A DNA stretch of 64,000 nt from a virus (lineage: Duplodnaviria > Caudoviricetes), in the IMG/VR virus record IMGVR_UViG_3300031760_003956, positions 1 to 64,000 of that record; one strand, given 5' to 3'. Positions 5,681 to 46,984 of this stretch are shown here, in pieces (the stretch's first letter is position 1; the number at the start of each line of letters is the position of its first letter). The position numbers were made by a program, and so were the translations under genes. The notes below the pieces were generated by a model. That model did not search any database. It worked only from the letters and a program-made list of their open reading frames with translations, and was not told the DNA's origin.

Positions 5681-5871
5681 CAGATTTACCCCCTTTCAAA
5701 TTCTCTGTAGTTATTAGTTTACTTATCTGAATAAGCGTAAGCCCTCCCACCATCGCCAAGGTTACTACATCGGGAAGGTACAAGGGAATTTTTTATTCCC
5801 TTGCTAAAATAATTAAATAGATAATCAGCAACACCCCACCCACTTATGAAAAGCGGGCAGCGGTTAAAGGT

Positions 5872-6291
5872 TTAAGCATTTTTTATTATCTGATTAAGAT
5901 AATCAGCAAGCCAATTTTCGACTACATCGGCAATTACCTCACCGAGAATATAACAGCGGATTGTAACATCGAAATATTCCCAATCACCATTGATAAAATG
6001 TTCTGTTATCGTTTCCGGCTCAACGCAAAACTCACGGAGAGCGTCTTGTAATAAGTCCTCATTATCAATAACAGCCATTTTAGCTTTGTAGCTGTTGCAG
6101 TAATAGCTACCGCTTGCATTACCTGTTACACCGTCATCAATCCATAACTCATCGTGTAACATCTCTGTAATACCCTCAAAGTCGATTTCGCCATTATCGA
6201 CAAATTCAAGTAATTTTTCGTCATAGTAACCGTCTTGAATTGTGTCTTTGATGTCATCGAACATTGCTACATAATAATCATAATTTGTCAT
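5872..6291 (-). CDS. acidic hypothetical protein (DxVTGNASGSY / DVTIRCY motifs), first gene of the leftward arm
   Basis: ATG at 6291 after AAGGTGG; strongly acidic. Confidence 0.75.
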   Translation of the reverse strand: MTNYDYYVAMFDDIKDTIQDGYYDEKLLEFVDNGEIDFEGITEMLHDELWIDDGVTGNASGSYYCNSYKAKMAVIDNEDLLQDALREFCVEPETITEHFINGDWEYFDVTIRCYILGEVIADVVENWLADYLNQIIKNA

Positions 6292-6364
6292 AATTAAAAC
6301 CACCTTTTAAAAAATTCATTTTTTGGTATGTATTCACACCGTCAAAAGCTGAATATATCAGCCC

Positions 6365-6393
6365 TTGACGGTATGACCGATAAATGATATAAT
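6365..6393 (+). promoter_or_regulatory. sigma-A-type promoter, rightward and antisense to the leftward leader
   Basis: TTGACG-17 nt-TATAAT with a TG extension. Confidence 0.55.
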
Positions 6394-6785
6394 ATCTGTT
6401 ATCGGTATACCGTAGAATTTAAAGGGATTTTTTGACGTTTGACATTATATTAACGCTCCGGCTATTCTTTTCAATATACCGGATTTTTTCGCCTTGCCGT
6501 CTTAAAGTTAAACCGATAAATCATAGGTAATGAAATTACATTGACACTTTAATAATAAAGCCGTTTTAAACTTAATTTATAGGTTCATAGCTGTTATAAT
6601 TACATAGTCACAAGTTTTGATAATCTCCGAGCCGAAGGACAAGCACAATAAAATGTGCGATTACGTCAATGCTCAGTAGATTAAAAGCGATTAATATAAA
6701 CCGTTCATTCAATTTTCAAGGTTCAAAGGCTCAAAAGGTTTTTAATACCCTTTGAAAAGGTTTTTGATTTCTTTATCTTGACTAT

Positions 6786-6813
6786 ATTATATCAGAATAT
6801 CAGAAAAATACAA
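6786..6813 (-). promoter_or_regulatory. sigma-A-type promoter for the leftward arm
   Basis: Minus strand TTGTAT-16 nt-TATAAT with a TG extension. Confidence 0.55.
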
Positions 6814-6893
6814 TAGACGAATTACACAAACGTACAATAGACGAATTGTATATAATTGTGCATATTGTACAAATATATTACAATAGACGAATT
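6809..6893. promoter_or_regulatory. three 15-bp direct repeats TACAATAGACGAATT (putative operator)
   Basis: Exact copies at 6809, 6833 and 6879 between divergent promoters. Confidence 0.7.
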
Positions 6894-6906
6894 ACAGAAT
6901 TTTGAC

Positions 6907-6953
6907 ATACTATATATAGTGGTATAGAAATATATAAACACAATATATAGTGT
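6907..6953. promoter_or_regulatory. tandem NrdR-box-like palindromes
   Basis: ATACTATATATAGTGG (6907) and ACACAATATATAGTGT (6938), 31 bp apart, matching acaCwAtATaTwGtgt. They abut TTGACA at 6902 and overlap TGtTATAAT at 6951. Confidence 0.6.
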
Positions 6954-6999
6954 TATAATAGTTTTTGTGCAATATGTAAAAAGAATAGGAGGTTTTTTT

Positions 7000-7263
7000 G
7001 TGTATTATGACAAAAAAGAAACAGAGAAGCGGAAGAACTCAGCGGCAAGGATAAGAGCAAACAACAAGTATACAAAGGCACATTATAAAAACGTTAGTAT
7101 TAAGATAAAGCCGGAGGAAGCGGAAGCAATCAGAGCAAAAGCGAAAGCATACAATATCAGTATTGCACAGCTTATTATTAGAGCCGTTGACGAGTACAAG
7201 CCGGAGAACATCAGCACCACAGAGGAAACCACAGAACAGACCGCCGAAACCGCCGAGCCGTAA
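7000..7263 (+). CDS. ribbon-helix-helix (Arc/CopG-like) DNA-binding protein
   Basis: AGGAGG then GTG at 7000; RANNKY...YKNVSIKIKPEEAEAIRAKAK...SIAQLIIRAVDE RHH pattern. Confidence 0.7.
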   Translation: MYYDKKETEKRKNSAARIRANNKYTKAHYKNVSIKIKPEEAEAIRAKAKAYNISIAQLIIRAVDEYKPENISTTEETTEQTAETAEP

Positions 7264-7269
7264 CCGCAT

Positions 7270-10040
7270 ACCAATAAATCAGAATAAGGACAGACAAGCC
7301 CACAGAATAAGCAATACAAGCTACAGGAGAGCCACAGACGAACGAAACCGCCGAGGGAATGAAAGTATATTATTTTTATTTTCGTTTGTTATACGGCAAT
7401 ATAAAAGGAAACGAGCGACACACGGCAGCAGAGAAGAACAACAGAGCAACAACAGGATAATAACAACAGATAGACAGACAGAGCAGTAATATATAATTAC
7501 TACTCTGTTTTTTTATATAGTCTTATTTTGCTTTTATTTGACTTGTAAGCGATTTTTGTATCAGTAATATAAATTTCATTAATGCGATATAAAAACGTCA
7601 TACAGAGGACGAGAAAGCAAAAGAAAGCTATTGTATAGCGTTTTTTGTAGTTGTATTGTATTATTATATGGTAGTATGATTTATAGGAGAGCGACCGAGG
7701 AACGACCGCCGAGAAGATAAACCGAGGACAAACAGAACATCATCAGCGGAACATCAGAACCGAGAACCGAGGAACAGAAAACCTCCCACGGCTCCAACGG
7801 AAACGGAATCAGACTATCATATATTACTACTGTTATATATCTAAATGTTTATATATTGATAGACGGACGGAGAGAACGACAGAGCAACAGAGGAGAGGAG
7901 CAGAGGACGGAGGACGAGAGGACAGGAGGAGCAACAGAGGAGGAGAACAGCGAGGAGCGATAGCGAGAACAGAGAGCGGAGAGGATAAAGGCTCACGGCC
8001 GTCGGAGCAGTAAGACGAGGACAGGACGGAGGGCAAAGGCTCAGAATAAGACGGACAGACGAGGACAGCGGAGAGGATAGAAAAAGGGTTGAAACCTTAA
8101 CAAAGCCGATAATATAAGGGAATTTTTGAGATTTTAAGGGAATTTTTGAGAATTTTTGAGAGTATAAGACAGAAAAAAAGTAAATCAGAAGAATAATAAC
8201 GAGAAGGACGGAGAGGAGAGGAGGAAGGAGAGGAGAGAAAAAGCGGAAAGAGGATAATAATTTTTGTTAGTTTATGTTATGTTTAGTTGTTTGGTAAATT
8301 TGTATAGTTATGAGGGGAGTTTTTTTAACTGTTTTTGTGTAATTTTGATATATAAAATTTTTCATAAATGCTCACATCACCGAGAAAATGCGAAAAAATG
8401 AAAAGTTCGCATTTAATTTTTGCATTTAATTATTCAGCTTTTAAATGAGATATTCTCAATAGTTCGCATTTATTACCGATTTTCACAGCTTTTTTGATTA
8501 TTACCGCCGTAAAAATCAGCTTGTAAACCTCAAAATAAATGAGAACTTTTTATATAAGTTCGCATTTTTCAGTAAATCTCAAAAAATCGCTTGAAATCTA
8601 CATAAAACCGCCCCCATTTTACAAATCTAAACCGAAAAATAATCGAAAAAGTGAGGTAACCTACTCCCTCTACACACTCCCAAAAAACTCTCTCTCCCAA
8701 ACCTCTCACAATACCTCCCTCAATTCCCTTCTCACCCCTCAATTCCCCTATCCAAAATAACACCTCTCCCAACTCAACAAACCCTCATTTTACCCCTCAA
8801 ATCGCCCTCTATCACCACCCTAAAACCATTCCATACCACTCCAAACCCGAATATCCAAAAACCCATATAATCTCATATCTCTCATATCTAACGTCCTTAC
8901 TTATACTCACCCTCTTTATAAACCTATCCTTCTCCATCTAAATCCCTCAAAACTCCCATAAACACTACATTTTTACTATATAACAATACAAATATCTCTA
9001 AATCCTACAAACCTGTATTCTTAACACTAATCTAATTCGATAACCCACTATATAAGCTAAATTCTAATATCTTACGTCCTTAGTAAACTAATAACCATTA
9101 GTATATTTCACTTCTTTAATTACAAGTCTTTTTGGTACAAAAAAACCAAAATACATCAAAATAGAACTCTACTAAATTACGAGTTTTAAGGAATAACGTG
9201 TATTAGTAAAGATAGTTTTAGAGAACTTAAACTTTTAAAAAAGAGAAATCGGTTGAGTGAACGAGCGTAGCGAAGTGAATGTAAACCGTAATAGTTTCTG
9301 TTCTTTGATAGTTGTAGTTCTTCGTTAGTAATCTACTCATTTATATTTTGGTAAACTATGATTTTGTTCTTTCTAAATCTATTTGATTTAGTTTTCTTAC
9401 TCTCTCTAATTTAATCATCATATAATTCATCTTAGTCATAATCTAAACTAATGAATAAATTGAAAATATACTTTTACTCCTTTAAAAGTTAAACTCTATC
9501 TTAGAATCATAGCTTTATGTGTATATTCCGAAATTAAAATACACCTGTATGTTAGTTTTGGTTCTTAATTATATAAACACAAACTTGTGTTTTACGAAGA
9601 TGTGTATTTTACGAATTACCGTATTTCTCAAATTTGTAAAATAGAATACCTCAAATTTATAAAGTAAATTTGTTATATCTCAAATTTATAAAGTAAATTT
9701 GTCATACTTCAAATCTGTAAATCGAATATATCTTCCGAATTTATTATTTCAAAAAACTCGTATTTGCTGAAATACTATATTCTTAAAATCCTATATTTTT
9801 TAAATTGATAGTCCTTTAAATACGCAACTACGAAAAATTCTTTTTACGAACAATAATAAAAAAACACGCTGCAAGCGTGGTAAGTATTCTTTTAGATATT
9901 ATTATTAGTATATCGTTAAGTTTAACTACCTCCTAAGACACTACTGTTTTTTGAAGTTATGAAAATAAACCTATGTTTCTATGTAGTAGTTAGGGAGAAC
10001 ATAAACTTTTTTGCTTTATTTTGCTTAAAAAGAATAAAAA
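7270..10040. other. long non-coding, strongly strand-asymmetric region (candidate origin or packaging/terminus region)
   Basis: No credible ORFs; A/G-rich tracts at about 7860-8260 and C/A-rich, nearly G-free tracts at about 8660-8980; several repeat clusters. Confidence 0.55.
9627..9721. repeat. iteron-like direct repeats (C/T)TCAAATYTRTAAA x4
   Basis: Copies at 9627, 9650, 9679 and 9708 (last three 29 bp apart), upstream of a Rep-like gene. Confidence 0.6.
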
Positions 10041-14918: not shown

Positions 14919-15098
14919 AAATGTATAATATCGGGGAAACTCGATTTTATAAAAAGTCGCACATTTCCAGTAGGGAGTGTGCGATAAAAGCATAAACAAT
15001 GTGCTATGTGTTTCTTTTTTTTATTTTTTCTATTCTGTACTCATACTTGCCTGTTGAAATCCGATATATTAATCGGATTTTAACAGTCGGGTACATAT

Positions 15099-15175
15099 TG
15101 AGGTGTCGCCAAGAGGTTAAGGCACAGGACTTTGACTCCTGCATTTCGTGGGTTCAAATCCCACCATCTCAGCCA
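15099..15175 (+). tRNA. tRNA-Gln (TTG)
   Basis: Acceptor TGAGGTG/CATCTCA, anticodon loop CTTTGAC, GGTTCAAATCC T-arm, encoded CCA. Confidence 0.95.
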
Positions 15176-15211
15176 AATATACATACTTCGTTAGAGAAAG
15201 GGGTGATAAGT

Positions 15212-16198
15212 ATGGATATAACATATCGGGAAGTCAAAGAGTTAGTTTATAACAAATTGATTTCCAAGACTGAGGAAAGACCTTACGAAGAATTAAGCGA
15301 ATATCTTTTTGGAGAGGGTAACTGTTTTAATGAATCAGAAGTACGGAAACGTATGTATGGTATGAAACGGTTAATTGAGATTATAGAAGCTGAGAAAACA
15401 AACGGAGTTGCTTTGACGATTCTTTCTATATCGGATTTACATATCCCCTTTCAGCTTAATTACGAACTGTTAAAAGATTATAGAAATAAGATTGATATTT
15501 TACAGTTAAACGGTGATATAGTTGATTGTCAAGCATTATCAAAATTCAGTAAACAATATCGTATATCTCCAATGGAAGAAATAATACAGGGCAGACAATA
15601 TTTAATTGAGTTGATTAATTATTTAAGACCTACTAAAGTAGTATGTAATTACGGAAACCACGATAAGAGGTTCGCTAATTACTTCTCAAAGAATTTAGAT
15701 TCAGATGTATTAGAACTTTTGCCCGACACTTCTTTAGAGTTGATTTTTGTAGATGGCTTTAAGCATTACGATAAAAGGTGTGGTGCTAAGATTAGTTATG
15801 AGCCACTTAAAGATATATTTGAAGATATAGAAATAGAATATGTAGACGATTGGAAGTGCCGTATCGGAAAGACGTTTTTCGTTCATCCGCTTGCATATCG
15901 TTCAGGTATGCTTGCCACGGCTGATAAAGCAAAAGATTATTTGCAAGATACCTATAGAGAATCTTTTGATTGTGTTGTTATGGCACATACTCACAAGGTT
16001 GGTGATAGTTCAAAAGGTTATATTAGGTTGTTTGAGCAAGGTGCTTTTGCAGATGTAAAGAAAATGAATTATGTGGACGGTAGATTATTACCACCGCAGA
16101 AATCGGGATTTGCTATTATCTGTCAGGATGATGACGGTAACTTGATTCAAGACAAATCCAAAGTTATAACAATTAATACAGAAGACAAAAATGCGTAA
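15212..16198 (+). CDS. calcineurin-like metallophosphoesterase
   Basis: SDLH, GDIVD, GNHD and AHTH motifs. True start is ATG 15212 because the track start overlaps the tRNA. Confidence 0.88.
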   Translation: MDITYREVKELVYNKLISKTEERPYEELSEYLFGEGNCFNESEVRKRMYGMKRLIEIIEAEKTNGVALTILSISDLHIPFQLNYELLKDYRNKIDILQLNGDIVDCQALSKFSKQYRISPMEEIIQGRQYLIELINYLRPTKVVCNYGNHDKRFANYFSKNLDSDVLELLPDTSLELIFVDGFKHYDKRCGAKISYEPLKDIFEDIEIEYVDDWKCRIGKTFFVHPLAYRSGMLATADKAKDYLQDTYRESFDCVVMAHTHKVGDSSKGYIRLFEQGAFADVKKMNYVDGRLLPPQKSGFAIICQDDDGNLIQDKSKVITINTEDKNA

Positions 16199-32454: not shown

Positions 32455-35400
32455 ATGGCAGATGAAGATTTCAGACTACAACTATCAGCGGAAATAGGTA
32501 GTGACTCTATAAGTAGGGTTAAATCTCAACTTGACGAAATACAAAAGTCAGCTAAACCGATAACCTTAACAGGTGATATAGGGGCGTTGACTAAAGAAAT
32601 TGGAGAGTTGAGGTCACAGCTTAAATCTGTTAGTGCTGTTAAAATAGACGCTAATATTAAAACGGCTACAAACTCTTATAAAGAATTAGTTAATGTTGCT
32701 AAACAAATTGGTAATAAACAAATCAAGATTGCTAAACTTGATACACGGACAAATACTAATGAAATTAAAGCGTTACAGGCTGAGATAGATACTTTAACGG
32801 CTAAGGGTAAGGCTTTAATGGGTTCTTTCAATGGTAAGTTGTCGGCTGAACAGTTTAAGCAATTAGAGAATACAATAAAGGAAATTCAAACTACGACTCA
32901 GCAGACTATAGATGTTATCAATGCTAAGATGAAAGATAAGTCTGCGGTTGAGTTTCAAAAACAGGCTTTTGAAGATTTAAAAGCTAAAATAAAAGAAGAA
33001 GAACGGGCTGTCAGCGAATATAATAAAGTTCTTGAACAAATGAAGCGTTTGCAGTCTACTACTGAAAATGCTGGATATAGGGATTCAGTAGGTACTGCGA
33101 CTATTGAGGGATACAAAACAAAACTTGAAGAACTTAAAGCTAAAGAGGTAGAGGTTCGTGAGAAATTTGCTGATTTAATCCCACAGGAAAGTATAACTAA
33201 GGCTGAAACTGGTTTTGCCAATATAACTGCAAATATCGACAATATTGTTAGTAAAGCAGAACAGGCAAAAGAAAAACTCGTAGAGGCTATTCAGGGTACT
33301 CTTGCTAATGGTAATGCTTCAAATTATGATGTGGCAATATCAAAAGTTAGTCTTGATATGAGCAAACTTTCTGCGGTTAGTGATGAAACACGGGAGAAAG
33401 TTCAGTTACTTAGAGATACTTTAGTTGAAATGCGTACTGCGTCTGAAAGTGGTGATGTTGAAACTCTTATTGCTAAAGAAAAAGAATTTTCAGATACTTT
33501 AAAGCAAGTACAAAATGAGTTAAAAATCACGGCAGACAGAGAAGAAGAATTAGCACAAGCGGAGAAATTACTTAATGATAGAGCGATTCTATCTAATCAA
33601 ATGGGCGTGTGGTTGAAAGAAAATACTGCCGCTACAAAACAATTTGGTAATCAAATTAAAATACTTCAAACCGAGGTTAAGTCTTGTGATAATGTAAGGC
33701 TCGGTCAAATAAGACAAGAGTTTAGAATGATTACACAAGAAGCTAAAATGGCTGGTAAAACAGGTTTGGCTTTTACTGATAGACTCGGTTATCAAATAAA
33801 GAAGTTGTCAACGTATTTTAGTGGTCTTTATATTATTATGAGTACCTATAGAACTCTTAAAACAGGTGTTGAAACTGTTATTGAGTTGGATACGGCACTC
33901 GTTGATTTGAAGAAGACTACTGACGGTACTACTGAGCAACTTAATGAATTTTACGAGAGTGCGTCTGAGATTGGTAAGCAGTTGGGAGTTACGGCGAAAG
34001 ATGTAATTCAAGCAAGTGCTGACTGGTCACGTCTTGGTTGGCTTCGGCTCGACCCTATATATAGAAATATATATAAGTAAATTCAGCTTTTATCGGGAAA
34101 TCTCCTGAGAAGGACAATTCCGAGGGCAAGATAGAATGTTTAGTATATTCTAAACCCGTAACGAGTAAGTTTTACATACAGTAATGTATGTTTGCACGCT
34201 GAACACCTAAATACGAAAGTACAAGGTGATGATGTACTCTGCTCTGCAACTATAATCAAAATATAATATGAAATTGCAGAGGTAGGCAGAAATGACCTAC
34301 CCCTTTCTTTTTGGAAAGAGTAACAAAAGGACTCAATTAAAGACGCTATTGAAATGGCTAAAACGTCATCTATTTTTGAAGCTATCTCACCGGATTTGGA
34401 TATGAATGAATCGACCGATGGGTTGGTTTCGGCTATGAAGGCAAAACGAAAGTTTATGCCCTGTTGTATAGTAATATGCAACTTGTATACATTTAACTAC
34501 AGGTAATCTCTAAAGCCTTGCACCACAATAACGGAGAAATCACGTTATGATGGCACGAAAGTAGAAACAACGTAAGGATGATATAAGGTCAAAAGCCTAA
34601 GTATTGTGATAATGAGTGTTCTGTAGCCAAGTACCCTAACGTATTCCGTAGACCATACGGTATTAGTCGAGGGTAAAGGTTCAACGACTATTCTCAGTAG
34701 AGTTATGGACTTGTGAATAAGGGTGGAAATCCCGAATATCCATAACAATAGAAGTACGGCACAATCGCAAAGGTGTGAGTGAAAACCTCTTAAATGGAAA
34801 AGGTGTACCCCTATTAAATAGGGTGAAGAAATAGTCTATTCTTATATGAAAATATAAGTACAAAAGATTTAAAATTGAAGCAGATGACGCTTTAGATGGA
34901 ATTGCGAGTAAGATTAATGCTATAGGTAATTCACAAGCAGTCAGTAACGGAAATATCGTTGACTTCCTTACTCGTTCATCTTCTGCTATGGCAGAAGCTA
35001 ACAATACTTTAGATGAAACTATTGCGTTAGGAACGGCAGCAACAGAAATTACGAGGGACGCAGCTTCCGTAGGTAATGCTATGAAGACAAAACATTGTCT
35101 TTATATACAGAAATGTATATATAGAACACATTTAATTGCAGGTAATACCTAAAGCCTTGCACCACAATAGCGAGGAAACTACGCTATGATGGTTTGAAAA
35201 CGTAAGGATATTACAATGGTTGTTCTGCAACGAAGCACCTAAGTTAGTAATAATATGGTGAACGCTCAACGACCACTCCCTTGTCGGGTTGTAGGTTTAC
35301 GAATAAGGGTAAAATCCCGAATAACTACAGCAACAGAGGTACGGCACAAGCTAATGGTGTGGGTGAAATCCCCTTAAATGGAAAAGGTGTGGTTGCTATT

Positions 35401-38400
35401 CTGTTTAATACAGAATGTGATTAAGAAATGGTCTACTCTTGCGTGAAAGCGTAAGTTATCAATTGTGATAAGGTGTATGTTGCGAGTACACTTAATATTT
35501 GGAATAAGTATGAGAATTAGAGGCTATGATGAAAGCACCAATGAATTTATTGGTGGCGTAGAAGTTCTCGATGGTAAAATAGCAAATCTTACGAAGACTG
35601 CTAAAAACGGATTTGGTGGCGTTTCTTTATTTGCTGACGAAGCAAAAACAACATTTAAAAGTACAACACAAATTTTAAGAGATATATCTGAGGTTTGGGA
35701 TGACCTTACCGACAAAAATCAGGCAAAATTACTCGAAGCTCTTGCCGGTTATCATACGTTAGCCGGATTGTGTAGTAATACACAAAATAGTACATATTTA
35801 ATTGCGTTGGTTGCCTAAAGCCTTATACTACAATAATCGAGAAATCAGATTATGAGAGTTTAACAACATAAGGATATTACAATGGCTAATTCGCAGCGAA
35901 GTACCCTAACATTATTCTTAAAACAAAAGAACAGTTAAGCTGAGGGTACACGTTCAACGACCATTCCCGATAGGGTTGTAATAATAGAATAAAGGTGGGA
36001 ATCCTGAATAGTTACAACAACAGAAGTACGGCTCAAATATATGGAGTGAGTGAAAACCTCTTAAATGGAAAAGGTATGCCCCTATTTTAAATAGGGTGAA
36101 GAAATGGTCTAAACTTATACGAGAGTATAAGAATGGTTATATATAAAAAATATGAGATATACTTATACGAATGATGATATTGATTTTTTAAGAAAATATT
36201 ATCCAAACGGGGATTGGGAGAAAATTGAACAAAGATTCCCGTTTTTATCAAAAACAGCAATATATAGAAAATGTCAAAAATTAAATATTGCTTCAAATAA
36301 TACGCATAGAAAAGATTTTGACAATACTAAAAATAGACGTAAGTGGACGGAAAAGGAAACTAAAATATTAATGCAAAATTATAGTTATATTCCTTTTGAC
36401 GATTTAATGAAATTATTACCAAATCGCACTAAAGATATGATTAATAATAAAGCAAAAAGATGTAATTTATTATCTTATCAAAAAATTACATCAAAATGGA
36501 AAGACTGGGAAGTTGAATATATACAAACTAATTGGTTTTTAATTCCCGATGTGATTATTGCGAAAAACATAGGAAGAACACAAAGGGCGGTCAAATGGAA
36601 ACGAGAGCAAATGGGATTGTATAGACAAAATTTTGAAAGTTTTTCTTATCCAACGATTTCAAAATATTTACGAGGTCAAAATCAACAATGGAAAAAAGAG
36701 TCTATGGAGAATTGTAATTATAAGTGTGTATTAACCGACAGTAAAAGTTTTGAGATACATCATTTATATGGTGTGAGCAATATTATAAATGATATTTTTG
36801 ATTTATACCCTAAATACAAAGATAAATCTTTTAAAGACTACTCTGAAAAAGATTTATCTTTTTTATTAACTGAATTTTTAAGAATACAGAGTTTATATCC
36901 GCTTGGTGTATGTGTGGATAAAAAATTACACGTTTTGTTTCACAGTATGTACGGTCAATACTTTAATACACCTGAACAATGGTATAGATTTTGTGAAGAT
37001 TATAAGAAAGGAGTGTATGAAGAATATATATAACCATTAACAGAAGTTGTGACTCTGTTTAATAAAATTGAAACGTCAAGGTCAAGTTGTTGCAGCTATG
37101 CTCAACAACTTCCAAACAGTAGAAGATTCTCTTAATACAATGCAGAATAGTGCTGGTAACGCTATGCAAGAAATGTCAATTATTCAAGACAGTATTGAGT
37201 ATAAAATGAACGCATTTTCTCAAACTGCAACAGGAATATGGCAAAACCTTTTCAAGCGTGGCGATATTGGTGCTGTTATTGATTTATTTACAAATTTCTT
37301 ATCAATAATAGATAAGATTACAGACCACTTTGGTCTACTCGGCACAGCCGTAGGTATAACCGCTGGTATATTATCAGCAAAATTTGGCGTGGGTGAACTA
37401 ATTAAACAGTTCTGTTTACTTATGACACTAAGGAACGAATACGCTCACGAAACCTTTAACTAATAGTAATATAAACGAGATTGTGTTTGCTCGTATAACG
37501 GTTTATCGTTACACAATCAAGAGGGGTTTAGAAAAATAGGATAAACTGATATAAGTTAAAATTCTTATATCAATAGACTAAGACGTTTTATATGTTAAGC
37601 TACATAATACATATAAAACTATTAGCAGCCATTACCTTACGAGAGGTAGGTTCAGAGGACATAAACCTACACGGTGAGAATCGTGAATGAATGTTGCAAA
37701 CTGTACCCGACAGTAGTTATGAGTTGGGGTAAAAATTTAACCATTGGCTAAATGGTGTGTCAAAAATAGTGGGATACTTCTTCCCTGTTACCTGAGCAAA
37801 AGAAGTTAAAATAGAAATTTTATGTATCATAATGCACAAATAACACTTGAAAAACGTGCGAAAAGTGTAGTGAAGTAGGTTGAAAAAAGTGCGAAAAGTG
37901 TGTTTTGACGTATTTTGTTCACTTTGTATTTGTGCAATATGACGAATAAATAGCAACCAAAAAAGGTTGCATATAGAAAACGCAACCAAAAACGGTTGCG
38001 TTTGTTATTATACTGAAAGGGTATAATTTGATTTTTACGATTCGGATTATACCTTAACGGGATATTTCCCATTTCGGCAATTTTTTCGGATTTGGGGAAT
38101 AGATTGCCGATTTAAAAAGAAAGGATTGGTAAAATGATATTTTCGGTTGATAGGTTTATTGAATTATCAAAATCAAAAATAAAAAAGAAATTTAAAAAAG
38201 TATATCTTTATGATGAATATAATAATGCAACTGGTAGAAACAAAGAAAGGCGTTATTATTATAATAAAGAAATTATGTTATTTTTAAAAGAATGGGAGAT
38301 TGAATTAACATATAAAACATTGATTCATAAGGGTGTTTTTACGGAGAAAGAATTGTCTTTTGAACAATTTATAAAACTATTTTATATAAAAATATTTGAG

Positions 38401-41400
38401 AATCGGTATTTATGTAGATTTATAGATATAAAACCGATGATAGATTTTATTAATAGAGTTCGGCAAAATAATGATTAATCATTCTCCATAGGTTATTGCA
38501 GAGGTATAATTTTTGCCTTAATTGTTGTTTCTTTGTTTCATTAAATTCATTCTTGACTTCATTAGAAAGAATATTATTACGCTCTTTCAAACAAAGGACA
38601 ACAAAAGGTGCGTAGAATATTGCGTCTGATATATTTATAAATGTATTATTATTCATTTTATTTATTATATCTTGGCGATAAGAAAATTCTTGCATAATAA
38701 ATATACCGTCTATTTCTACGGATTCTTTGATTAGCTTAAATTCTTCTTCTGTTAATTTTCTATCTACAAAATCACTCATATTCTTCCCTACCTTAAAACT
38801 TATAACCACAATTCCGGCAAACAAATTGACTTCTTGCGGTTTAATTAGTAACTAATCTACTTTATATTCATATAAACTTGCTTTCCAAGTACCATTTTCA
38901 CGGCGTTGACAACTAACACTTTTTATTTGAGGTTTACCGTTAATAGTCATATTGAAATCAAGATAAACGGTATCTTCATCTATTATATTGTAATCTCCTG
39001 TATAGACCACACTACTTACTTCTCGATATATGCTCATAACTCTACTACAGTATGACATAGCTGCTCTTTCTGCTTTTTTGAGATAGTATGTACTCATTTG
39101 AGGTTTTGTATATTCTTGTTCGTAGTCGGTGTCGGAATAAGAATTTGTATTAGTCGGGTTATCGGTTGTATTGCTTTTCTTACAAGTAGTAAGAGATATA
39201 ACTATTCCAATTACTACGATTATTATTATTACTATTATTGAAACAAAAAATACGATTGAATTTTTCTCGGATTTATCTTTATTTTGTAGCATAATATAGC
39301 CTCCTTTGGTATTTAAACCAATTATATATTATCTTTATACACAATTCAAGTAATTTTGATAAATTCAGGTTACGTCTTTATATTCAGTTTGATATTCAAA
39401 ACCGTTGAAGACGAATCGAAATTTGCTGGAATTAGAATAAAGAATAACTTATTAAGTGGTATAAAAGCAATAGCGAGTGAAGCCCCGAAGATTGATTTGG
39501 GTAAGAATTTTTCTGCTAATTTAGATAAGCAAACAGAGTATTTTACTTCATTTAGAAATGCAGTAAATGAAGGTATGGCGGTTGATGAGGCTAAAACACA
39601 GTATTTATCAAGTGCTATGCAAGCAACTCGTGATTATGTAAATGCGACAAACTTAGCAGAACAAAGCGAAGAAGGACTAAGAACCGCCGTTACTCAAAGT
39701 CAAGTGGCTTTAGTGGCACAAGGTAATAGTCTTAGTAATACAAGGTCGTTGATTGCCGAGTATAACTCTGGTTTAAACACTACAGGTAATGTATGTAAAG
39801 AAACGGGATTAAATCAAACACAATTTGCACAAGCGGTAGCACAATCACGAACTGGTTTAGGTAATTATTTAAACAATTTAGACGGTGCGAAGGCTTCTAT
39901 GGGTGGTTATATCGCTCAACTTGTAGGTGCTAAAATTGCTACGTTTGCTTTAAACGCTGTAACAACATTACTTAATGCTACTATTAGTATGGGTATTGGG
40001 CTTATTGCGTCAATGCTTGTAAGTGGAGTAGTTAGTTGGATTGATGATATAATTCATCATACTGAGAAACTTATTGAAGCCGGTGAAGAAGCTGAAAATA
40101 AAGTTAAGGAAATTAGCGAAACTTTTGAAAAACAAAAGTCTGTTATAAGTGAATCAACAACGCAATTTGCTGAATTGGCTCAGGGTGTTGATATGGTTAC
40201 TGGTAAAAACAAATCATTGTCAACGTCTGAATATGAGGCGTTTTTATCAATTAGTAAAGACTTGGCAGAACAATTTACCGACCTTCCTGTTATTTACGAT
40301 GAAAATGGCAATGCTATTGTTCAACTTAACGGTAATGTCAATGATGTTACAAATTCTTTAAAGGAACTATTAGAGGTTGAAAGAGAAATAGCCAATCAAA
40401 AAATTGCAGATGAATTACCAAAGATTTTTGATAAAACTAAGGCACAAAATGAAGTTTTAGAAGACGAATTATACGATATACAATCTAATTTATGGTATAA
40501 CAAGTTAGATAAAGCTGGTGAAAAGCGACTTTCGATAGATGTAAATGGTTTAGATTTAGATGAAGTAACGAAGATACGAGAAAAATACGAGGCTTTATTT
40601 AAAAAATATAATATCCCAGCTTTATTTAATAAAGGACAACAGGTTTGGAAAGATGATAAACTTGTATTTGATACTTTGTATTTTGATTTAAACGGAACTG
40701 TAAATGTTACTGATAAATTGAAAAAAGAATTAGAAAAAGGTACTTACGAAATTCAAAAAGAATTTGAAAGTAAATTAAGTGGAAATACTTTTCAAACACT
40801 TGTTAATAATGTTAATAAAAAATCTGCTGATAAACAAAACGAAATAAAGCAGAATTGGAGCAATTTAACTTCTAATATAAATAAATGGCTACCTACCCAA
40901 ACCGACTATTCTGCTCTTTCGGAAGAAAGACAAAACCTTATCCAACGGTCTATTAACTCGTTGGATTATACTGCATTAAATTTTGATAAATGGGAAGACG
41001 CTGAAAAATATATTAAAGACCATTTATTAAAGGTATTAGGTAAAGATGAAAACGGTAAATTTAATTTTGATATTGAAAAATATACAGATTTATCGGAAGC
41101 CTTTGACTCATTTAAAAAAAATAAAATATCTCTAAAAAAATATCAAGAGTATTATAATACTGTTAAGACAAATCTTGAAGGTATTAAGGGCATTACAAAG
41201 GAAACCAAAAATGCTATATTAAATGATTTTAATACTATTGGTTCATCGGGAGAAACTTTAGATAATGCTTATGAAAGAATTTTTAAACTTTCTAAAGGCG
41301 TAATATCGGTAAAAGACGCTGAAAAAGAGTTAAAAAATTGGAAGTACGATGATATTTCAGCTTTATTTAAAATTGACGCTAAAACTATAAAATCTTGGGA

Positions 41401-44400
41401 TGATTTAAAAAACAAGATTAAAGAGTTTAAAGAAACCGATACAAGCAATTTTGATGAAAATGCTTTTATTGATGATGTTAAAAGGAGAGCAGACGCTTAT
41501 TCTGATTTTCTTAAACAGTCAGCACAACAAGGCGGTATTAATTATAAAACTGAAACTGATGAAAAGGGTAATGTAAAATCTCTTGGTGTAGACGCTCTTG
41601 CTTCTTATTATAGTCAAATTAAAGGTTATGATGAGGACAAACTTATTAAACGTACTGCACAAGGTATTAAACTTAATACACAAGAACTTACAAGATTAAA
41701 TAATGAGGTTGCTAAACAAGAAAAGAGCAAAGTTGATGAAAGGATTGAAAAGTTACAAAAGAAACTTGGAAATCTAAATGAAAAGATTAATTCTTGTACG
41801 GACGCAGAAGAAAGATTAAACCTTGAAAATGAACGTAGTGGTATTCTTGATGATATTGAAAACACCGAACTACTTGCAGCCAATTATGAAGCACTAACTT
41901 CTAAGTATCAGGCTTGGCAAGACGCTTTGAGTAATGGAGAAGAAGGAGATTCTTATGACGCTATAAGAGATAAACTCAAAGATATTAAAGAACTATACGA
42001 CAAGGGTTTGGTTGGTACAAATGAGTTTAGAACTTATGTTGATTTACTGACGTTTAAGGATTTATCAACGGCTAATGTTGATGATATTGTTAAGGCTTAT
42101 GAGAATCTTGACAATAATATTAAGAATACAAGTTATAGCGTAAAAGACTTCCTCAAAGAAGATGAACAGGGTGTAAATAACTTCTTGTCTGCTATGAAAG
42201 AATTAGGTTACTATACACAAGGTAAAGATGGTGAATGGACTCTTAAAATTGCAGATAAAGAAAGTCTTGCAAAACAGCTTGGTATTAGTACGGAATTTCT
42301 TGAAAACATTGTACAGAAGTTAGATGACTACGATTTCACCGTAGATATTGATATTGGTGGAATGTCAGATAATGACTTACAAAATGCTTTTGATGATGTT
42401 CGTAAGAAATTAAAGAAAGCAAAACTCACCGATATGACATTTTCGTTCGATGAGAATACTACTGAATCACAGGTTGACGACCAACTTAAAGAGATTCGTA
42501 GGATTATTCATAAGAAGTGGACTACCGTAAATGGTGAAGGTCAAGAGGTTATTAAGTTTGACATTGATGATGAAAATGCTAAAGCTGCTCAAATTATTCT
42601 TGCTAATCTTTTAAAGAAAAAGCAAGAATTTCAAGATAGCGGAGCGTTGGCGTTAAAGGTTGATGTTGACAAAGACTTAAAAGACCCGAAATCTGACGCT
42701 GGTAAGGCTATTAATAACATTCAATCCTTTAATAAAGGTATGAATAAGTATCAAGTTGATATTCAAACAGGTACGGATACGAAAAAATCGACTAAGAAAA
42801 TTACTAAGGCTGTTGATGGTCTTAATAGTATTAAAGACAAAAAAGTTCGTGCTGAACTTGGACTTGATGATAAGAAATTTAAGAAGGCTGTTAAGAATAT
42901 TAAGGCTAAAGTTAAAGCTGGTGCTGATTTAGACCAAAAAGATATTGACATTGTTAAATCCAAAATCAAAGGTATTGACGCTAAAGCACTCGTACATCTT
43001 GGAGTTGATAACAAGGACGTAGCTGAGGAAAAGAAACGTCAAGAAGGCGAAGTTATCAATAAAAAAGTTCAATTTAGCGTTGAAAAAAGTGAAGTTCTTA
43101 AATTTGAGAAAGAAGACCACGATGTAAAGGCTATTCTTAAATATGCTCCACAGATTGATGAAGACGCATTTACCCGATTAGTTAATCAGGCTAAAACGAG
43201 ATTACAAAATCAGTTAAAAAATGTTAATCCTACGCCAAAGTCAAAGAAAAAGAAGAAAGCTAAAGTCAATGGTACTGCATTTGCAAGGGGTAATTGGGGT
43301 GCTAAAGACTCCGGTAGGGCTTTAGGTGGAGAACTTAAACCTGAAATTCACGTTTTTGCTAATAGTGGACGTTGGGAACTTATTGGCGAACGCTCTCCTG
43401 AGTTCTTTAATTATCGTAAAGGCGATATTATTTTCAACGGAGAACAGACCGAACAGTTACTTAAATATGGTAAGATTAATTACGGTAGTAAACGTGGTAA
43501 TTCATTCTTAGGTGGTACTGCGTTTGCTGGTTCTTCTGCTCGTGGTGGTATTAATCTTAATAGTCAAGGATTAATACCTAAATCTAAATCTACGAAGAAA
43601 TCTTCATCGAGTTCTAAATCATCTTCTTCATCTTCTAAAAGTAAGAGTAGTTCTGATAGTAAGAGTGATAAGGACACACCACTTGATAAGTTTAAAGATT
43701 GGTTTAGTAAACTGTTTGATTGGATTGAGGTTAAACTTGAACGACAAACTGATAAAATTAGTGACTATATTACTAAGGCTGAACGTGCAACAGAGCGTGG
43801 TAGTTATGACGCTTCTGTTAAGAATTATCGTAAAGCTATAAACACAACAAGTGGGCTTGTTGAAACCGAGGGTAAAGCAAGTAGGCGGTATAAGAAACAA
43901 GCTAATAAAACATTGGACGTTGCTGTTAGCAAAGGCGTTATTAGCAAAAAGAGAGCAAATTCGATAAAGAAACTTGTTAAGTCGGGTAAAATTGATATTA
44001 GTAAGTATAGCGAAAGTGTTAGAGAAGTTATAGGTGATTATCAACAATGGTATGACAAAGCCAAAGAAGCTAAAAAATCTATCGGTGAACTTCATAATAA
44101 TATTCGCACTTATATCAAAGACCTCAAAGATGTTCGTGACGCTCAACGTCAAGCAAAACTCGATAAACAGAGTACATTCACGGGTATTGGTACAAGTGGT
44201 TTTGCTTATACTTCTGCGTTTAAGAATAGTCAACTTAATTATCAAAACTCACAGCTTAATGCTCAAAATTCTGCTTATAAAACTGAAACTGATAAAGTTG
44301 TAAGTGATTCTAAGAAAATTGGTAGTAGTGCTACTTCTGCTCTTGGTAAGTTAAAGCCGAAGAAGAATCAGAAGAAATATAAGCAAGCTATTAAAAATGC

Positions 44401-46984
44401 TAAAAATGCAATTAAAGCTAAAAAGAAAGTTAAAGACGCTGACTTAAAAACTATTAAAAAGCATAGTGTCAAGACATATGAGAAATTATATGCTTATAAT
44501 CTTTCTTTGGATAATGTTGAAACGGCTAAACTTGAACAAGCGGCTAATTATGCTGAAACGAGTAATCAAAAATTTGCTAATCAAGAAGCTAAATATGAGA
44601 ACGACAGGCAAAAGAGCGAAGACAATATTAGTCTATTCCGTCAAAGAGCCGATAATGCTACTTCTGCAAGTGGTAAGAATACTCAGTTAGATAAAGTTGT
44701 TGCTCAGTACAATAAACAACAAACAGATAGACAAGCTGAGATTAATGATTTTGCGAATCAAGCAACGGCTTTTGGTAAAACTATTTCTAAACAATCTACT
44801 AAGGGTAGCGGTGATTATAGTCAATATATTACTCAGGCAAAGAATAACGTAACTGCTGGTACTACAATTAGTGCTTCTGTTCTCGCTAAACTTGCTGAGG
44901 GTTATAGTAAAGGTAAGATTACCGCTGGATTCTATCAGGCTTGTGTTGATTATAATAACGCACTTCAATACAAGAAACAAGCGGAAGACCAACAAGAGAT
45001 TGAAAACGAAACAATTATAGCCGAAAAACGTGCTATTGGTGAAGAGAAGATAAGCAATATTCAGAAAGATTATCAAAATAAACTTTATAATAATAGAGTA
45101 AATGGTTTGACCTCTGAACAGTTAGGTGCTATGCGTGATATTAAGACCGCAAAAGGATTATCGCTTGACGCTAATGACTATCAACAGCAGATTCAGCTAA
45201 GTCAACAACAGAGAAATATTTTGATAGCAGAACAACAAGATTTAATAAATCAAATGAATCAAAATATTGCTGATGGTTTGTGGACTTATGATTCTCAGGA
45301 ATACATAGACGCTTCAAAAGCACTTGATGAAATCGGTGTTTCGATTGCCGGTTGTACAAAGAATGAAATTGAATGGAATAATGCGATTATAAACTTACCA
45401 TTTGAGAAATATGAGAAAGCACTTCAAATCATCGACAAAGTTAAAGGTGCTTGGAGTGCATACGCAAGTATGATGAAGACGATTGGTAAGGATTTAGATA
45501 AGAGTGTTGAAACTGCTTATCTCCAACAGATAGCACAAGAAACCGAACATTATCAAACCACAGTAAAGCAAACTGCGGAGGCTTGGGCTAATTATCAAAA
45601 GGCGTTAGCTGATTCTGAGGGTGTTTATGGTGGTAAGACTGCTGAGGAATGGTTTGGTGAGTATAACGATTTTGCGGCGGCTCAATATTCTTCTTATGAG
45701 AATATTAAGAAAATTAAAGATGAACTTCGTGATGAGTTCTATCTTAAACCTTTTGAAAAAGCTATTGAAAAAGCCGAGAAACTTAATGGTTTGTTGGAGG
45801 GTATCGCTGAATTTATTGACGAGAGTATGTACTATGATAAAGACGGTAAGATAACCGAATATGGTATTGCACAGGTTGGTCTTTTGACTGCTGGTTACGA
45901 AAAAGCAAGAGAGCAAGTTGGCAATTATCAAGCAGAACTTGATGAAGTCAACAGACTGTATGCAGAGGGTTATTATACTGCCGATGAGTATGCTGATAAG
46001 GTTAATGAAGTACAAACTAATATGCTTAACTCAGCTAAAGATATGAAGTCTTCTATGAATAGCATAGTTAATATGTATAAAGATATGGCTAAAGCTGAGT
46101 TAGATAGTTTGTTTAAGTTAATCGAAACTCGCCGTGAGGCTATTTCAGCGAAAAAATCTTACTATGACTTAGACAAAACGCTCCGTGATAAAAACTCAGA
46201 AATTCAAAATCTTGAAGCACAGATAGCAGCACTTGAAACTATGGACGATTTAGAGTCTAAGGCTCAACGTGCAAGATTACAGGCTGACTTAAAAGAGAAA
46301 CAGGATGACCTTAACGAAACTGTAAACGACCACTTAATTGAGATTAGTCAGAACGCTCTTGATGACTTGAAAGACAGTTTACAAGACGCTTTTGATGATA
46401 AGTGGGAGCATATATTTACTGATTTAAGTCAAGTAACACAGCTTATGAGTGCTGCTAACGCACTTACTAAGGGTTCGACTTTAACTATTAATAATGCTCT
46501 TAATAAGTTACTTGGTTATTATGGTATTGACCCGAACAAAGCACAATTAAGTGATGTTGTATCTACGGCTTCTGCCGGATACGCAAGTGGTACAAGGTCT
46601 GTATCTCAAAGTGGGTTAGCTTGGACTCAGGAAGGACGTAAACCTGAGTTTATTGTTAGAAAATCTGATGGTGCTATTCTAACTCCTTTAAGCAGAGGTG
46701 ACGGTGTAATTCCTAACGACCTAACTGATAACCTGTTTGCTTGGGGTAAGATTACACCCGAAGAATTTATCGGTAAGACGGGTGCTGATTATAACACACC
46801 TGAAACCAATGTCAACAATAATGTTTACAATAATTACGATAGTTTGATTAGAGTAGACGGTAATGTTGACAGTACAGTAATTACAGATTTAAAGGCGTTT
46901 GGCAAACAATTTTACGAGGACTCTTATCAATACACACACAGACGTATTGTAAGTGATTTGAAGAAAATTGGTGTTAAACGATAA
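32455..46984 (+). CDS. tail tape measure protein; spliced join(32455..34039,34331..34442,34867..35088,35503..35749,37071..37394,39392..46984) = 10083 nt, 3360 aa
   Basis: Junctions restore TP901-type TMP motifs: WSRLG|YSIKDA, VSAMKA|FKIEAD, VGNAMKT|ISMRIRG, LEALAG|KRQGQVV and FGVG|IFKTV. Long coiled coil; followed by Dit. Confidence 0.85.
34040..34330 (+). ncRNA. group I intron TMP-1 (291 nt)
   Basis: P1 ggtT/Gacc; P4 tcggga/ttccga; P7 gagta/tactc; terminal G34330. Confidence 0.87.
34443..34866 (+). ncRNA. group I intron TMP-2 (424 nt)
   Basis: R ggttcaacgactatt and S gaagaaatagtct; P1 ggC/Gcc; terminal G34866. Confidence 0.85.
35089..35502 (+). ncRNA. group I intron TMP-3 (414 nt)
   Basis: R ctcaacgacca and S agaaatggtct; P1 aagaC/Gtctt; terminal G35502; strong sequence similarity to TMP-2 and TMP-4. 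Confidence 0.85.
35750..37070 (+). mobile_element. group I intron TMP-4 (1321 nt) carrying a homing endonuclease
   Basis: P1 ccggT/Gccgg; R gttcaacgacca and S gaagaaatggtct; ORF inserted after P7; terminal G37070. Confidence 0.9.
36152..37033 (+). CDS. intron-encoded HNH-type homing endonuclease with N-terminal Myb/SANT-like repeats
   Basis: Three W/YTxxExxxL repeats; C-terminal YKCVLT...EIHHLY...GVCV...HVLFHSMYG. Confidence 0.75.
   Translation: MRYTYTNDDIDFLRKYYPNGDWEKIEQRFPFLSKTAIYRKCQKLNIASNNTHRKDFDNTKNRRKWTEKETKILMQNYSYIPFDDLMKLLPNRTKDMINNKAKRCNLLSYQKITSKWKDWEVEYIQTNWFLIPDVIIAKNIGRTQRAVKWKREQMGLYRQNFESFSYPTISKYLRGQNQQWKKESMENCNYKCVLTDSKSFEIHHLYGVSNIINDIFDLYPKYKDKSFKDYSEKDLSFLLTEFLRIQSLYPLGVCVDKKLHVLFHSMYGQYFNTPEQWYRFCEDYKKGVYEEYI
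38134..38478 (+). CDS. intron passenger, hypothetical basic protein
   Basis: ORF track; AAGGA RBS; very AT-rich. Confidence 0.6.
   Translation: MIFSVDRFIELSKSKIKKKFKKVYLYDEYNNATGRNKERRYYYNKEIMLFLKEWEIELTYKTLIHKGVFTEKELSFEQFIKLFYIKIFENRYLCRFIDIKPMIDFINRVRQNND
38450..38779 (-). CDS. intron passenger, hypothetical protein (antisense)
   Basis: ATG 38779 after AGGGA; converges on and overlaps the + strand ORF by 29 bp. Confidence 0.6.
   Translation of the reverse strand: MSDFVDRKLTEEEFKLIKESVEIDGIFIMQEFSYRQDIINKMNNNTFINISDAIFYAPFVVLCLKERNNILSNEVKNEFNETKKQQLRQKLYLCNNLWRMINHYFAELY
38852..39292 (-). CDS. intron passenger, membrane-anchored protein (antisense; superinfection-exclusion-like layout)
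   Basis: AAGGAGG RBS; N-terminal I/V-rich TM helix, T/N/S linker and soluble C-terminal domain. Confidence 0.75.
   Translation of the reverse strand: MLQNKDKSEKNSIVFFVSIIVIIIIVVIGIVISLTTCKKSNTTDNPTNTNSYSDTDYEQEYTKPQMSTYYLKKAERAAMSYCSRVMSIYREVSSVVYTGDYNIIDEDTVYLDFNMTINGKPQIKSVSCQRRENGTWKASLYEYKVD
39321..39349 (-). promoter_or_regulatory. sigma-A-type promoter for the antisense passenger genes
   Basis: Minus strand TTGAAT-17 nt-TATAAT, about 30 nt upstream of ATG 39292. Confidence 0.7.

Follow-up and report, generated by a model that had tools for sequence, protein, structure and literature searches.

A group I intron with putatively interchangeable passenger genes in a phage tape-measure gene

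The interrupted tape-measure gene

The window analysed here is a stretch of 64,000 nucleotides from a virus of the Caudoviricetes, and it contains a tape-measure protein (TMP) gene that is interrupted several times. Comparison with related loci confirms that the fifth of these interruptions is a group I intron:

37071-37394, + strand: TMP exon 5, 108 codons; its last base is the U of the splice-site U.G pair
37395-39391, + strand: group I intron, 1997 nt, with terminal G at 39391
39392-46984, + strand: TMP exon 6, about 2530 codons, without a Shine-Dalgarno (SD)-led start

A preliminary description of the window had proposed an intron with these limits, and comparative structure, conserved ends and an in-frame junction agree with it. 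As described there, TMP homology breaks after the GGT codon ending at 37394 (PHROG 4211, E = 1e-11) and the frame picks up at 39392 with no SD-led start. The exon 5 protein aligns at 52% with the uninterrupted TMP of locus L009. Removal of the intron leaves no stops in the spliced junction regions of 15/15 loci, and the spliced junction of the window agrees with the intronless allele L011 (GVG-IFD). The intron is present in one copy in this genome, which encodes a second tyrosine integrase.

Across homologues the intron ends in an in-frame TTG, which we counted against cis-splicing; in L005 an ATG follows it. No SD was found upstream of this TTG in any locus examined. The upstream TMP frame runs 21 codons into the intron of the window before a stop, and this read-through varies from 0 to 35 codons between loci. 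Since TMP coding sequence upstream of the intron stays open over 739-1129 codons in L004, L019, L025, L027 and L032, a neighbouring intron is not needed.

We collected about 17 distinct homologous introns, all at the same TMP codon in phages of gut Clostridia, the relatives being proviruses. Exon 5 alignments were too divergent to scan for loci. Chance pattern matches (L012-L018, L021, L022, L060-L064, L066, L067 and most contig matches) were dropped after inspection or blastn, and a cultured-phage collection gave no DNA match, only distant TMPs and no match to the zinc ribbon discussed below. Between distant loci the intron cores are 64-89% identical, and the exon proteins there are mostly 22-44% and 16-40% identical. 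The comparison that the preliminary description had proposed returned conserved intron ends, covarying stems, differing cargo and intronless alleles (L006 and L011). On the DNA we found neither exon 6 set up as an independent protein, nor relatives encoding two separate proteins, nor unconserved long-range stems, which are those among the observations named there as speaking against an intron that DNA can address.

The Rfam model RF00028 (Intron_gpI), run on the intron and on the whole window, gave no match for 37395-39391 up to E = 10, and the same-site introns of L019, L065, L025, L010 and L009 were also unmatched. This model covers ID and IE group I introns poorly (PMC11878797).

Ribozyme fold and guanosine-binding site

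The intron folds into a ribozyme in two pieces, separated by the loop that holds the cargo:

37388-37449, + strand: P1 (37388-37394/37443-37449), 5-bp P1 extension (37395-37412) and internal guide (37437-37449)
37451-37528, + strand: P2 and P2a (P2a 37479-37486/37511-37518; two-sided changes in 7/7 counted pairs)
37537-37669, + strand: P3 (37537-37542 with 37664-37669)
37547-37572, + strand: extra 9-bp hairpin between P3 and P4 (two-sided changes in 6/9 pairs)
37576-37651, + strand: P4 (37576-37581/37622-37626, with a bulged A), P5 (37585-37619), P6 and P6a (37628-37651)
37655-37697, + strand: P7 (37655-37661/37692-37697) and P8 (37670-37685)
37698-37795, + strand: 5' piece of the P9 region, with the P9.0 5' strand (37698-37703), P9 (37704-37731), P9.1 (37740-37756) and the 5' arm of the closing stem (37787-37795)
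39365-39391, + strand: 3' ribozyme piece, with the other closing-stem arm (39365-39373), the P9.0 strand (39385-39390) and omega-G (39391)
39393-39397, + strand: 3' strand of P10, pairing with 37437-37441 (5-6 bp in 14/14 loci)

Across an alignment of 16 sequences, pairing is kept at 95.6% of helix positions, and two-sided changes occur in 43/78 pairs; 0/500 shuffles scored as high, and slid controls gave 33-40%. Single-sequence folding of the intron was uninformative (z = -1.4). P3, P4, P6, P7 and P8 occur in canonical order with a P3/P7 pseudoknot, and each shows two-sided changes except P6, which is invariant. P3 is 100% paired, with compensatory changes in L002, L052, L019 and L065; this covariation displaces the P3 suggested earlier (ggttta/taaacc), the 5' segment of which falls in P2. 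P4 is 100% paired in three covarying forms, and an alternative using 37546-37551 was ruled out, as 37578-37581 covaries on both sides. The covarying hairpin at 37547-37572 had been overlooked in the preliminary description.

The proposal that one internal guide pairs with both exons was borne out. P1 pairs at 99%, changes compensatorily in L019, L065, L026 and L032 and has a splice-site U.G in 15/15 (U37394.G37443 in the window), and guide and 3' exon covary in the P10 of L026/L032 (5 bp in the window). The 3' splice site has the terminal G, P9.0 and P10 expected of group I introns. Both long-range stems proposed earlier were likewise recovered, P9.0 running directly into G39391. The closing stem (8/9 pairs in the window, perfect in the close relative L077) keeps its position in several sequence versions of 6-12 bp, is weak in L026 and L023, and beats windows from its own cargo in most loci (Fisher p = 5e-7, the loci not being independent). 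Whole-arm duplex energies separated self from control poorly, whereas the position-restricted stem test separated both.

Some of the core is off consensus: J4/5 is not A-rich and J3/4 is interrupted by the hairpin, which we counted against our best explanation. P7.1 and P7.2 are absent, the 5' strand of P7 leading straight into the 3' strand of P3 (37655-37669). The intron thus differs from subgroup IA, that of the usual phage introns, in which P7.1/P7.2 are inserted between P7 and P3, and in the same P7/P3 arrangement from three upstream introns of the same TMP gene.

The preliminary description had called P7 atypical, and this can now be pinned to a detail that it missed. In register with the sister introns of L019 and L065, G37657 faces G37696 at the position of the G264-C311 pair. 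G264 is opposite G rather than C in 14/16 members; L019 and L065 keep G-C in an otherwise identical layout, and two P7 pairs swap compensatorily relative to them. A G-C pair is obtained in the window only if G37696 bulges and G37657 pairs with C37697; the relevant columns are invariant and fit both readings, either of which is non-canonical. Another P7 3' strand near 39371-39376 was dropped as not conserved. A P7-blind scan sorted all P7 helices into just two distinct types, none of them decayed. The variant looks conserved in sequence rather than decayed.

Changes at the P7 G-C pair strongly impair splicing of the Tetrahymena intron. This pair is termed universally conserved in group I introns (PMC3511172), and it binds guanosine in structures (PMC10020454); the unusual pair was therefore counted against a functional intron. 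Natural clade-specific variants of the P7 G-site occur in the myxomycete introns S1389 and L2449, which, according to excerpts of PMC8395846 and PMC3511172, affect the bulged nucleotide or the first base pair, whereas here the G-C pair itself is displaced or replaced.

Passenger genes of the loop

The loop carries three ORFs and their signals:

37953-38003, both strands: terminator-like hairpins (minus strand 37987-37965 and 37970-37953; plus strand, weak, 37978-38003)
38134-38478, + strand: ORF1, 114 aa, overlapping ORF2 tail to tail
38450-38779, - strand: ORF2, 109 aa from an SD-led ATG
38852-39292, - strand: ORF3, 146 aa, with one transmembrane (TM) helix, a linker and a cystatin/NTF2-like domain
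39300-39349, - strand: sigmaA-type promoter and SD of the antisense cargo unit (-35 at 39349, -10 ending at 39321, SD 39307-39300)

Three ORFs, two of them antisense and one membrane-anchored, had been described before, as had their lack of nuclease motifs: no nuclease family matched in Pfam, PHROG, NCBIfam or PADLOC, and neither the window ORFs nor the cargo proteins of relatives tested matched HNH, GIY-YIG or LAGLIDADG. In L005 and L082 the corresponding slot holds ORF1 homologues at ~30% identity; the AlphaFold model of ORF1 (pLDDT 51) was too unreliable for a structure search. Homologues of ORF2 lie inside a TMP intron (P0011), beside a matching intron 3' end (P0009) and in a bacterial chromosome (P0008); its similarity to Y1_Tnp is sub-threshold (E = 0.013 over 33 aa). 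Relatives of ORF3 carry an additional N-terminal zinc ribbon. Weak PHROG superinfection-exclusion matches to ORF3 (E = 2e-4 and 2e-3) fall mainly in the TM and low-complexity region, its fold match is generic (best natural Z 6.9), and it has no significant homology to Ltp or gp15. From their context, ORF1-3 may be of a host-interaction or exclusion type.

The antisense promoter reported earlier is present at 39349-39321. Taken by itself it does not exceed chance (11 sites vs 13 expected), but a promoter scoring 10-12/12 occurs at the same place in 12/15 homologues, where the sense strand scores 8-10. At 39356-39384 a site resembling a sense promoter was set aside as not conserved. Antisense-oriented terminators lie near the position of the 37953-38003 hairpins in 8/15 homologues. 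The loops of the window, L005 and L077 contain a weak hairpin resembling a sense terminator, which was counted against cis-splicing. The antisense unit, from about 39314 to the terminators at 37987-37953, spans the loop only, which lends little weight to the earlier suggestion that its transcript suppresses TMP expression.

Cargo differs even among the window, L005 and L077, though their cores are 94-97% identical. Intron lengths range from 0.8 to 3 kb, and at the same site an intron with another core reaches 7.7 kb; some introns of just 0.8-0.9 kb hold a single antisense gene. In nearly every case the cargo opens with an antisense gene, and a strong promoter lies immediately within the 3' splice site. 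The intron of L052 holds DarTG (DarT, E = 4e-32; DarG, E = 3e-94), and that of L073 holds KwaA/KwaB-like (Kiwa-like) and TenpN-like genes and an AAA ATPase. No helper ORF is conserved in the cargo across homologues. This comparison suggests that the cargo is interchangeable and that the intron serves as a hotspot for accessory genes. The cargo differences and the defence genes of L052 and L073 thus favour the landing site for moron-like genes proposed earlier; for the ORFs of the window, that part of the proposal draws on context.

A model for splicing and cargo exchange

Several known systems resemble this locus in part. In the hexacoral mitochondrial group I intron ND5-717 the loop also holds ordinary genes, but these are fixed, essential and mitochondrial, whereas the slot here is variable and of an accessory or defence type. 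In IStrons, the 3' splice site of a group I ribozyme lies past a large protein-coding insert that is silent at the RNA level, an IS200/605-type element whose transposase or TnpB moves the unit; IS200/605 or IS607 tnpA/tnpB and many insertion sites mark the class. The present intron likewise has its 3' splice site beyond a large coding insert, which splicing would make silent at the RNA level, but no transposase was found inside it, its site is fixed at one TMP codon, its cargo is variable and it has a single genome copy. HK97 gp15, which adjoins the TMP gene, is an example of phage morons and accessory hotspots. Like morons, the cargo has its own promoter, is bounded by terminators in the tail region, encodes membrane-anchored or lipoprotein-like products and includes defence systems exchanged between phages; unlike morons, which lie between genes, it sits inside an essential gene and requires splicing. 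The TP-J34 lipoprotein Ltp targets TMP (cited in PMC3952083).

Among phage introns, those of the T4 td/nrdB/sunY, SPO1 and Twort types interrupt essential genes, with an ORF-bearing loop splitting the ribozyme. Bastillevirinae introns (lengths to 3.3 kb) share this layout, but their loop ORFs are homing nucleases, usually one or none, with no swappable non-nuclease cargo (PMC11878797); a text search of that paper returned no tape-measure intron. TMP-IVS1, IVS2 and IVS3 of Bacillus cereus-group prophages are group I introns in tape-measure genes, several per gene, inserted after U, mostly without endonuclease and with different introns adapted to one site (PMC2504315, which also names the IStrons CdISt1 and BcISt1). 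They are of subgroups IA1/IA2 and carry no more than a homing endonuclease or remnants of one (PMC2504315), whereas the present family lacks P7.1/P7.2 and has the P3-P4 hairpin, the altered G-site and independently promoted antisense passengers. A literature search, with most subscription papers beyond its reach, found no paper on this family or on cargo-carrying or G-site-altered phage introns. What appears new, judged from sequence, is a group I intron with variable passenger genes in place of the usual DNA-cutting enzyme and an altered guanosine pocket.

From the observed structure, covariation, boundaries, in-frame junction, cargo diversity and promoter position, we infer splicing, the timing of cargo expression, recombinational exchange and the function of ORF1-3. 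We consider it likely that the intron is functional and splices in cis, that it represents a structural subtype of group I outside existing models, and that its terminal loop, in the P9 region, has become a slot for accessory genes. In the late tail mRNA, the first ~400 nt of the intron would fold into the ribozyme, P9.0 and the 6-12-bp closing stem would bridge the cargo and draw in the last ~30 nt with the terminal G, and P1 and P10 would align the exons. Splicing would fuse ...FGVG to IFK... in a single TMP of some 3,400 aa. Guanosine would still bind to the altered P7, whether this has G opposite G or G-C plus a bulged G, but probably more weakly. The cargo would be transcribed separately, from the antisense promoter at the 3' edge of the intron to terminators before the core; its own promoter and terminators could allow expression independently of the late operon, as in a lysogen. 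The conserved intron flanks may act as recombination arms for cargo swaps, and large deletions would be limited because both intron ends are needed to make the tail.

If an altered P7 could not support standard GTP-initiated self-splicing, a helper (a host or phage protein, or a chaperone) or unusual chemistry (another nucleophile, or a hydrolytic first step) would be called for. The guanosine-binding position, where 14/16 members have G facing G, and a core that is conserved yet off consensus in J3/4 and J4/5 point this way, as does the dependence of G-site variants of myxomycete S1389 introns on host factors (PMC8395846). We nevertheless regard this as unlikely: the Hoogsteen face of G264 is retained, the U.G, omega-G, P9.0 and P10 are all standard, the G-C sisters share the layout, and the cargo holds no conserved helper ORF. 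Splicing in trans, which the preliminary description had raised, would have the 5' transcript end or be cut in the loop while a second RNA brings the last ~30 nt and exon 6. The ribozyme is indeed physically bipartite, its halves held by two stems, loops reach 7.7 kb, the hairpin at 37978-38003 could terminate sense transcripts, and antisense RNA could turn the loop into a target for double-strand nucleases. Sense terminators, however, occur in only 6/15 loci, a search near the 3' piece found no conserved sense promoter, the stems are short and some introns are merely 0.8-0.9 kb with one antisense gene, which makes this improbable. More improbable still is a dead intron in a split gene, with exon 6 translated from the intron-end TTG and the RNA structure a relic or regulator: the abutting TTG, the altered G-site and the 21-codon read-through would suit two TMP proteins, but the TTG lacks an SD in every locus, read-through length is inconsistent, P10 covaries with the exon, no decayed P7 turned up and the frame is maintained over the junction in 15/15 loci.

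Functional cis-splicing with a cargo slot, our preferred reading, leads to a bolder and more doubtful one: phage group I introns of a widespread class would have been domesticated into islands of defence and accessory genes, protected by splicing within the essential TMP gene (to ~8 kb, with at least three unrelated cores converging on one site), and one lineage of them splices with a rebuilt guanosine site lacking G264-C311. If so, that site could tie tail production to the GTP level or reveal a different group I chemistry. With natural sister ribozymes that differ almost only in P7 (G-C vs G opposite G), the supposed universality of the G-C pair becomes directly testable in vitro. Accommodating 0.5-2.7 kb of foreign genes in a single loop, the ribozyme would also be a useful cargo scaffold. 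Such introns would offer phages a route to carry variable anti-phage or host-interaction genes within an essential virion gene. Because annotation takes these loci for tape-measure genes that are broken or split, and Rfam is blind to the intron, intact genes and islands are both overlooked. The slot may also be mined for further genes of defence or exclusion, among which the recurrent zinc-ribbon family and the pair formed by ORF1 and ORF2 are candidates.

Introns of the tape-measure gene and homologous loci

The viral record is 94 kb long, with the window as its first 64 kb, and encodes terminase, tail and replication genes, an integrase-like gene directly 5' of the tape-measure (TMP) gene and, outside the window, a second tyrosine integrase; this layout appears to resemble that of SPbeta-like temperate phages. 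Set against a related TMP that has no interruption in its 5' part, the gene is split into six exons, and four further group I introns span 34047-37070, upstream of the intron at 37395-39391 (+). Rfam RF00028 matched three of these four and nothing in 37395-39391, even with the cut-off at E 10.

Upstream group I introns of the TMP gene
~34047-34330: intron 1, without Rfam match
34458-34858: intron 2, Rfam match
35079-35455: intron 3, Rfam match
35740-36131 (Rfam-matched part): intron 4

Intron 4 carries an ORF (36152-37033, 293 aa) with Myb-like repeats and a C-terminus that is HNH-like by eye only; a search of profile libraries for HNH gave no match. Elsewhere in the window we noted a Twister-P1 ribozyme-like match (5258-5317 (-); 50 bits, E 3e-8, below gathering score) immediately 5' of ORF 3922-5229 (-), and an Rfam tRNA match (15099-15172 (+), 59 bits) within the first-start-called metallophosphoesterase ORF 14999-16198.

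Pattern scans at the DNA level, run on collections of viruses, metagenomes and genomes, together with protein-led look-ups, placed the same element in ~17 distinct loci (L numbers), whose named hosts are all Clostridia (Ruminococcus MAG, L052; Eubacteriales MAG, L045; Clostridia MAG, L037). In all loci that include the 5' end, the element follows directly on one and the same TMP glycine codon; its 3' end, in loci that have it, consists of a short conserved strand and a G, after which a long open frame begins with IF, IV, IL, MF, LF or VF. Intron length ranges from 791 to 2992 nt, and joining the exons introduced no stops in 15 of 15 loci. The intronless alleles anticipated by the preliminary description exist in L006 and L011, the latter reading GVG-IFD over the site. 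Past the L037 core lie >5 kb of mobile-element-like genes, and the locus showed no 3' end; its cargo may be disrupted or very large.

Ribozyme structure and the guanosine site

Helices were assigned by hand and pairs then counted across 16 sequences: 95.6% of helix cells were paired, and 43 of 78 pairs showed two-sided changes. None of 500 shuffles scored as high, a test inflated by kinship of the sequences, and sliding the partners, a control that retains relatedness, lowered pairing to 33-40%. P1 has U.G in all members. The 3' splice site is fixed by covariation of the guide with the 3' exon in L026/L032, and P4 is found in three covarying versions. The intron proposed earlier was thus largely confirmed, with one helix corrected: the 5' segment of its P3 (ggttta/taaacc) belongs to P2, and P3 is instead formed by 37537-37542/37664-37669, where L002, L052, L019 and L065 show compensatory changes. 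Because a covarying 9-bp hairpin is inserted between P3 and P4 and P7.1/P7.2 are absent, the intron is not of the IA type usual in phages.

The long-range stems were also borne out as conserved and covarying: the core is tied to the last 30 nt by P9.0 (6 bp) and a 6-12-bp closing stem. The latter varies in sequence while staying in place: its 5' arm lies 82-90 nt downstream of P9.0 and its 3' arm stops 13-24 nt short of the terminal G. It exceeds own-cargo control windows in most loci and is weak in L026 and L023. An additional pair between C37697 and the terminal G can lengthen P9.0 (then 37697-37703 and 39385-39391), at the expense of the first P7 pair; this is possible in both P7 types described below.

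Solved structures show the terminal G in a triple with the G264-C311 pair (PMC10020454), which PMC3511172 terms universally conserved. L019 and L065 keep this G-C pair, whereas the window (G37657 opposite G37696) and 13 other loci have G opposite G at the same positions with the same strand lengths, as well as two compensatory swaps further along P7, in keeping with the earlier remark that P7 is atypical. Alternatively, G-C could be retained if G37657 paired with C37697 and G37696 were bulged out, but this costs the 262-312 pair, and since position-for-position homology with L019/L065 points to G.G, we lean modestly towards the G.G reading. Because many loci came from P7-containing patterns, we also scanned with P7 left unspecified, which returned four G.G loci, two G-C loci and no locus intermediate between them; an unrooted, P7-masked tree requires a single change of type (99/95 support). 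Among G.G members recovered without P7 patterns, identity across lineages is 76-84%, whereas both P7 strands are identical; this speaks for retention of the altered P7 by selection rather than for decay.

Cargo of the intron loop

The window's loop holds three cargo genes:
38134..38478 (+): ORF1
38450..38779 (-): ORF2
38852..39292 (-): ORF3

An antisense gene is present in each complete member, usually preceded by a strong SD; its start lies ~60-115 nt into the intron, counted from the 3' splice site, except in L045 (255 nt). In addition, 12 of 15 loci have an antisense-facing sigmaA promoter (10-12/12) and 8 of 15 antisense-oriented terminators. The first antisense gene most commonly encodes a small zinc-ribbon protein and otherwise lipoprotein-like or membrane proteins. 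The recurrent zinc-ribbon family, an antisense cargo gene in L002, L004, L005, L010, L023, L025-L027, L029, L030, L032, L045, L052, L065, L082 and L083, has a conserved C-terminal two-CxxC domain; Pfam, PHROG and NCBIfam gave it no specific family, and nothing among cultured phages matched. ORF3 is TM-anchored with a cystatin/NTF2-like domain in the predicted structure (domain pLDDT 85-92; best natural match Z 6.9, not diagnostic), and its closest relatives, in the same slot of L077 and L080, have an added N-terminal zinc ribbon. ORF1 and ORF2 overlap tail-to-tail and are real genes, since the pair recurs in L005, L082 and L083 at ~30% identity. The AT-rich spacer 37819-38110 (22-nt direct repeat, 36-nt imperfect inverted repeat, several hairpins) is conserved in L005, and in part also in L077, even where ORF1/ORF2 are absent, and may hold a sense promoter or small RNA.

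Cargo turns over much faster than the ribozyme, because near-identical cores differ in content: L077 (96% identical) has ORF3 only, and in L005 (97%) a zinc-ribbon gene replaces ORF3 and ORF1/ORF2 are divergent. Such differing cargo between conserved ends had been predicted. The L052 intron contains DarT (PADLOC E 4e-32) and DarG (E 3e-94). Essentially the same codon also hosts cores unmatched by our structural model:

L010, ~6321-7409: further core type (1.1 kb) at or near the TMP site; zinc-ribbon cargo
L083, ~3020-5640: further core type at or near the TMP site; zinc ribbon and ORF1/ORF2 homologues
L073 (provirus in genome G001), 526-8253: 7.7-kb insert, same TMP site shifted one base; different group I-like core, defence island

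The L073 insert has a 7-bp P10, and its removal restores frame; its cargo comprises genes that are KwaA-like (E 2e-15), TenpN-like (E 8e-18, below cut-off) and, weakly, KwaB-like, with HTH and AAA-ATPase genes and, last, an antisense zinc-ribbon gene. Its kwaA-like and kwaB-like genes are convergent, not co-oriented. Together, the comparative evidence largely supports the proposed view of the intron as a cargo slot.

Expression, mobility and relation to known introns

Judging from sequence, the late transcript most likely splices in cis, and the cargo most likely has an antisense unit of its own for expression. Rival accounts are a split gene, trans-splicing, and splicing that depends on a helper or is non-standard. 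The antisense unit would begin within the 3' arm and run to terminators at 37987-37953, therefore overlapping neither exon nor core, which weakens the earlier suggestion of antisense silencing of TMP; transcription collisions or cleavage of the loop may nevertheless occur.

Window exon 5 is ~50% identical to L006, L010, L011 and L073 but only 22-35% identical to a second set of phages, those with intron cores at 75-80% identity to the window's; window exon 6 is closer to several of this second set. These differing affinities suggest that intron and 3' exon were transferred together through recombination. As first described, the intron encodes no endonuclease.

Morons are self-contained genes between tail genes, and in IStrons an IS element is hidden in an intron. 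Among phage introns, those in TMP genes of Bacillus cereus-group prophages are IA1/IA2, with an endonuclease or none (PMC2504315), unlike the non-IA intron here, and loops of Bastillevirinae introns are occupied by homing nucleases (PMC11878797) rather than variable non-nuclease cargo, including the defence genes of L052. Known natural guanosine-site variants alter the bulge and first pair (PMC8395846, PMC3511172); here the G-C pair itself is affected. Our literature search yielded no publication describing phage introns with non-nuclease or defence cargo that varies, nor any in which the group I guanosine site has lost its G-C pair.
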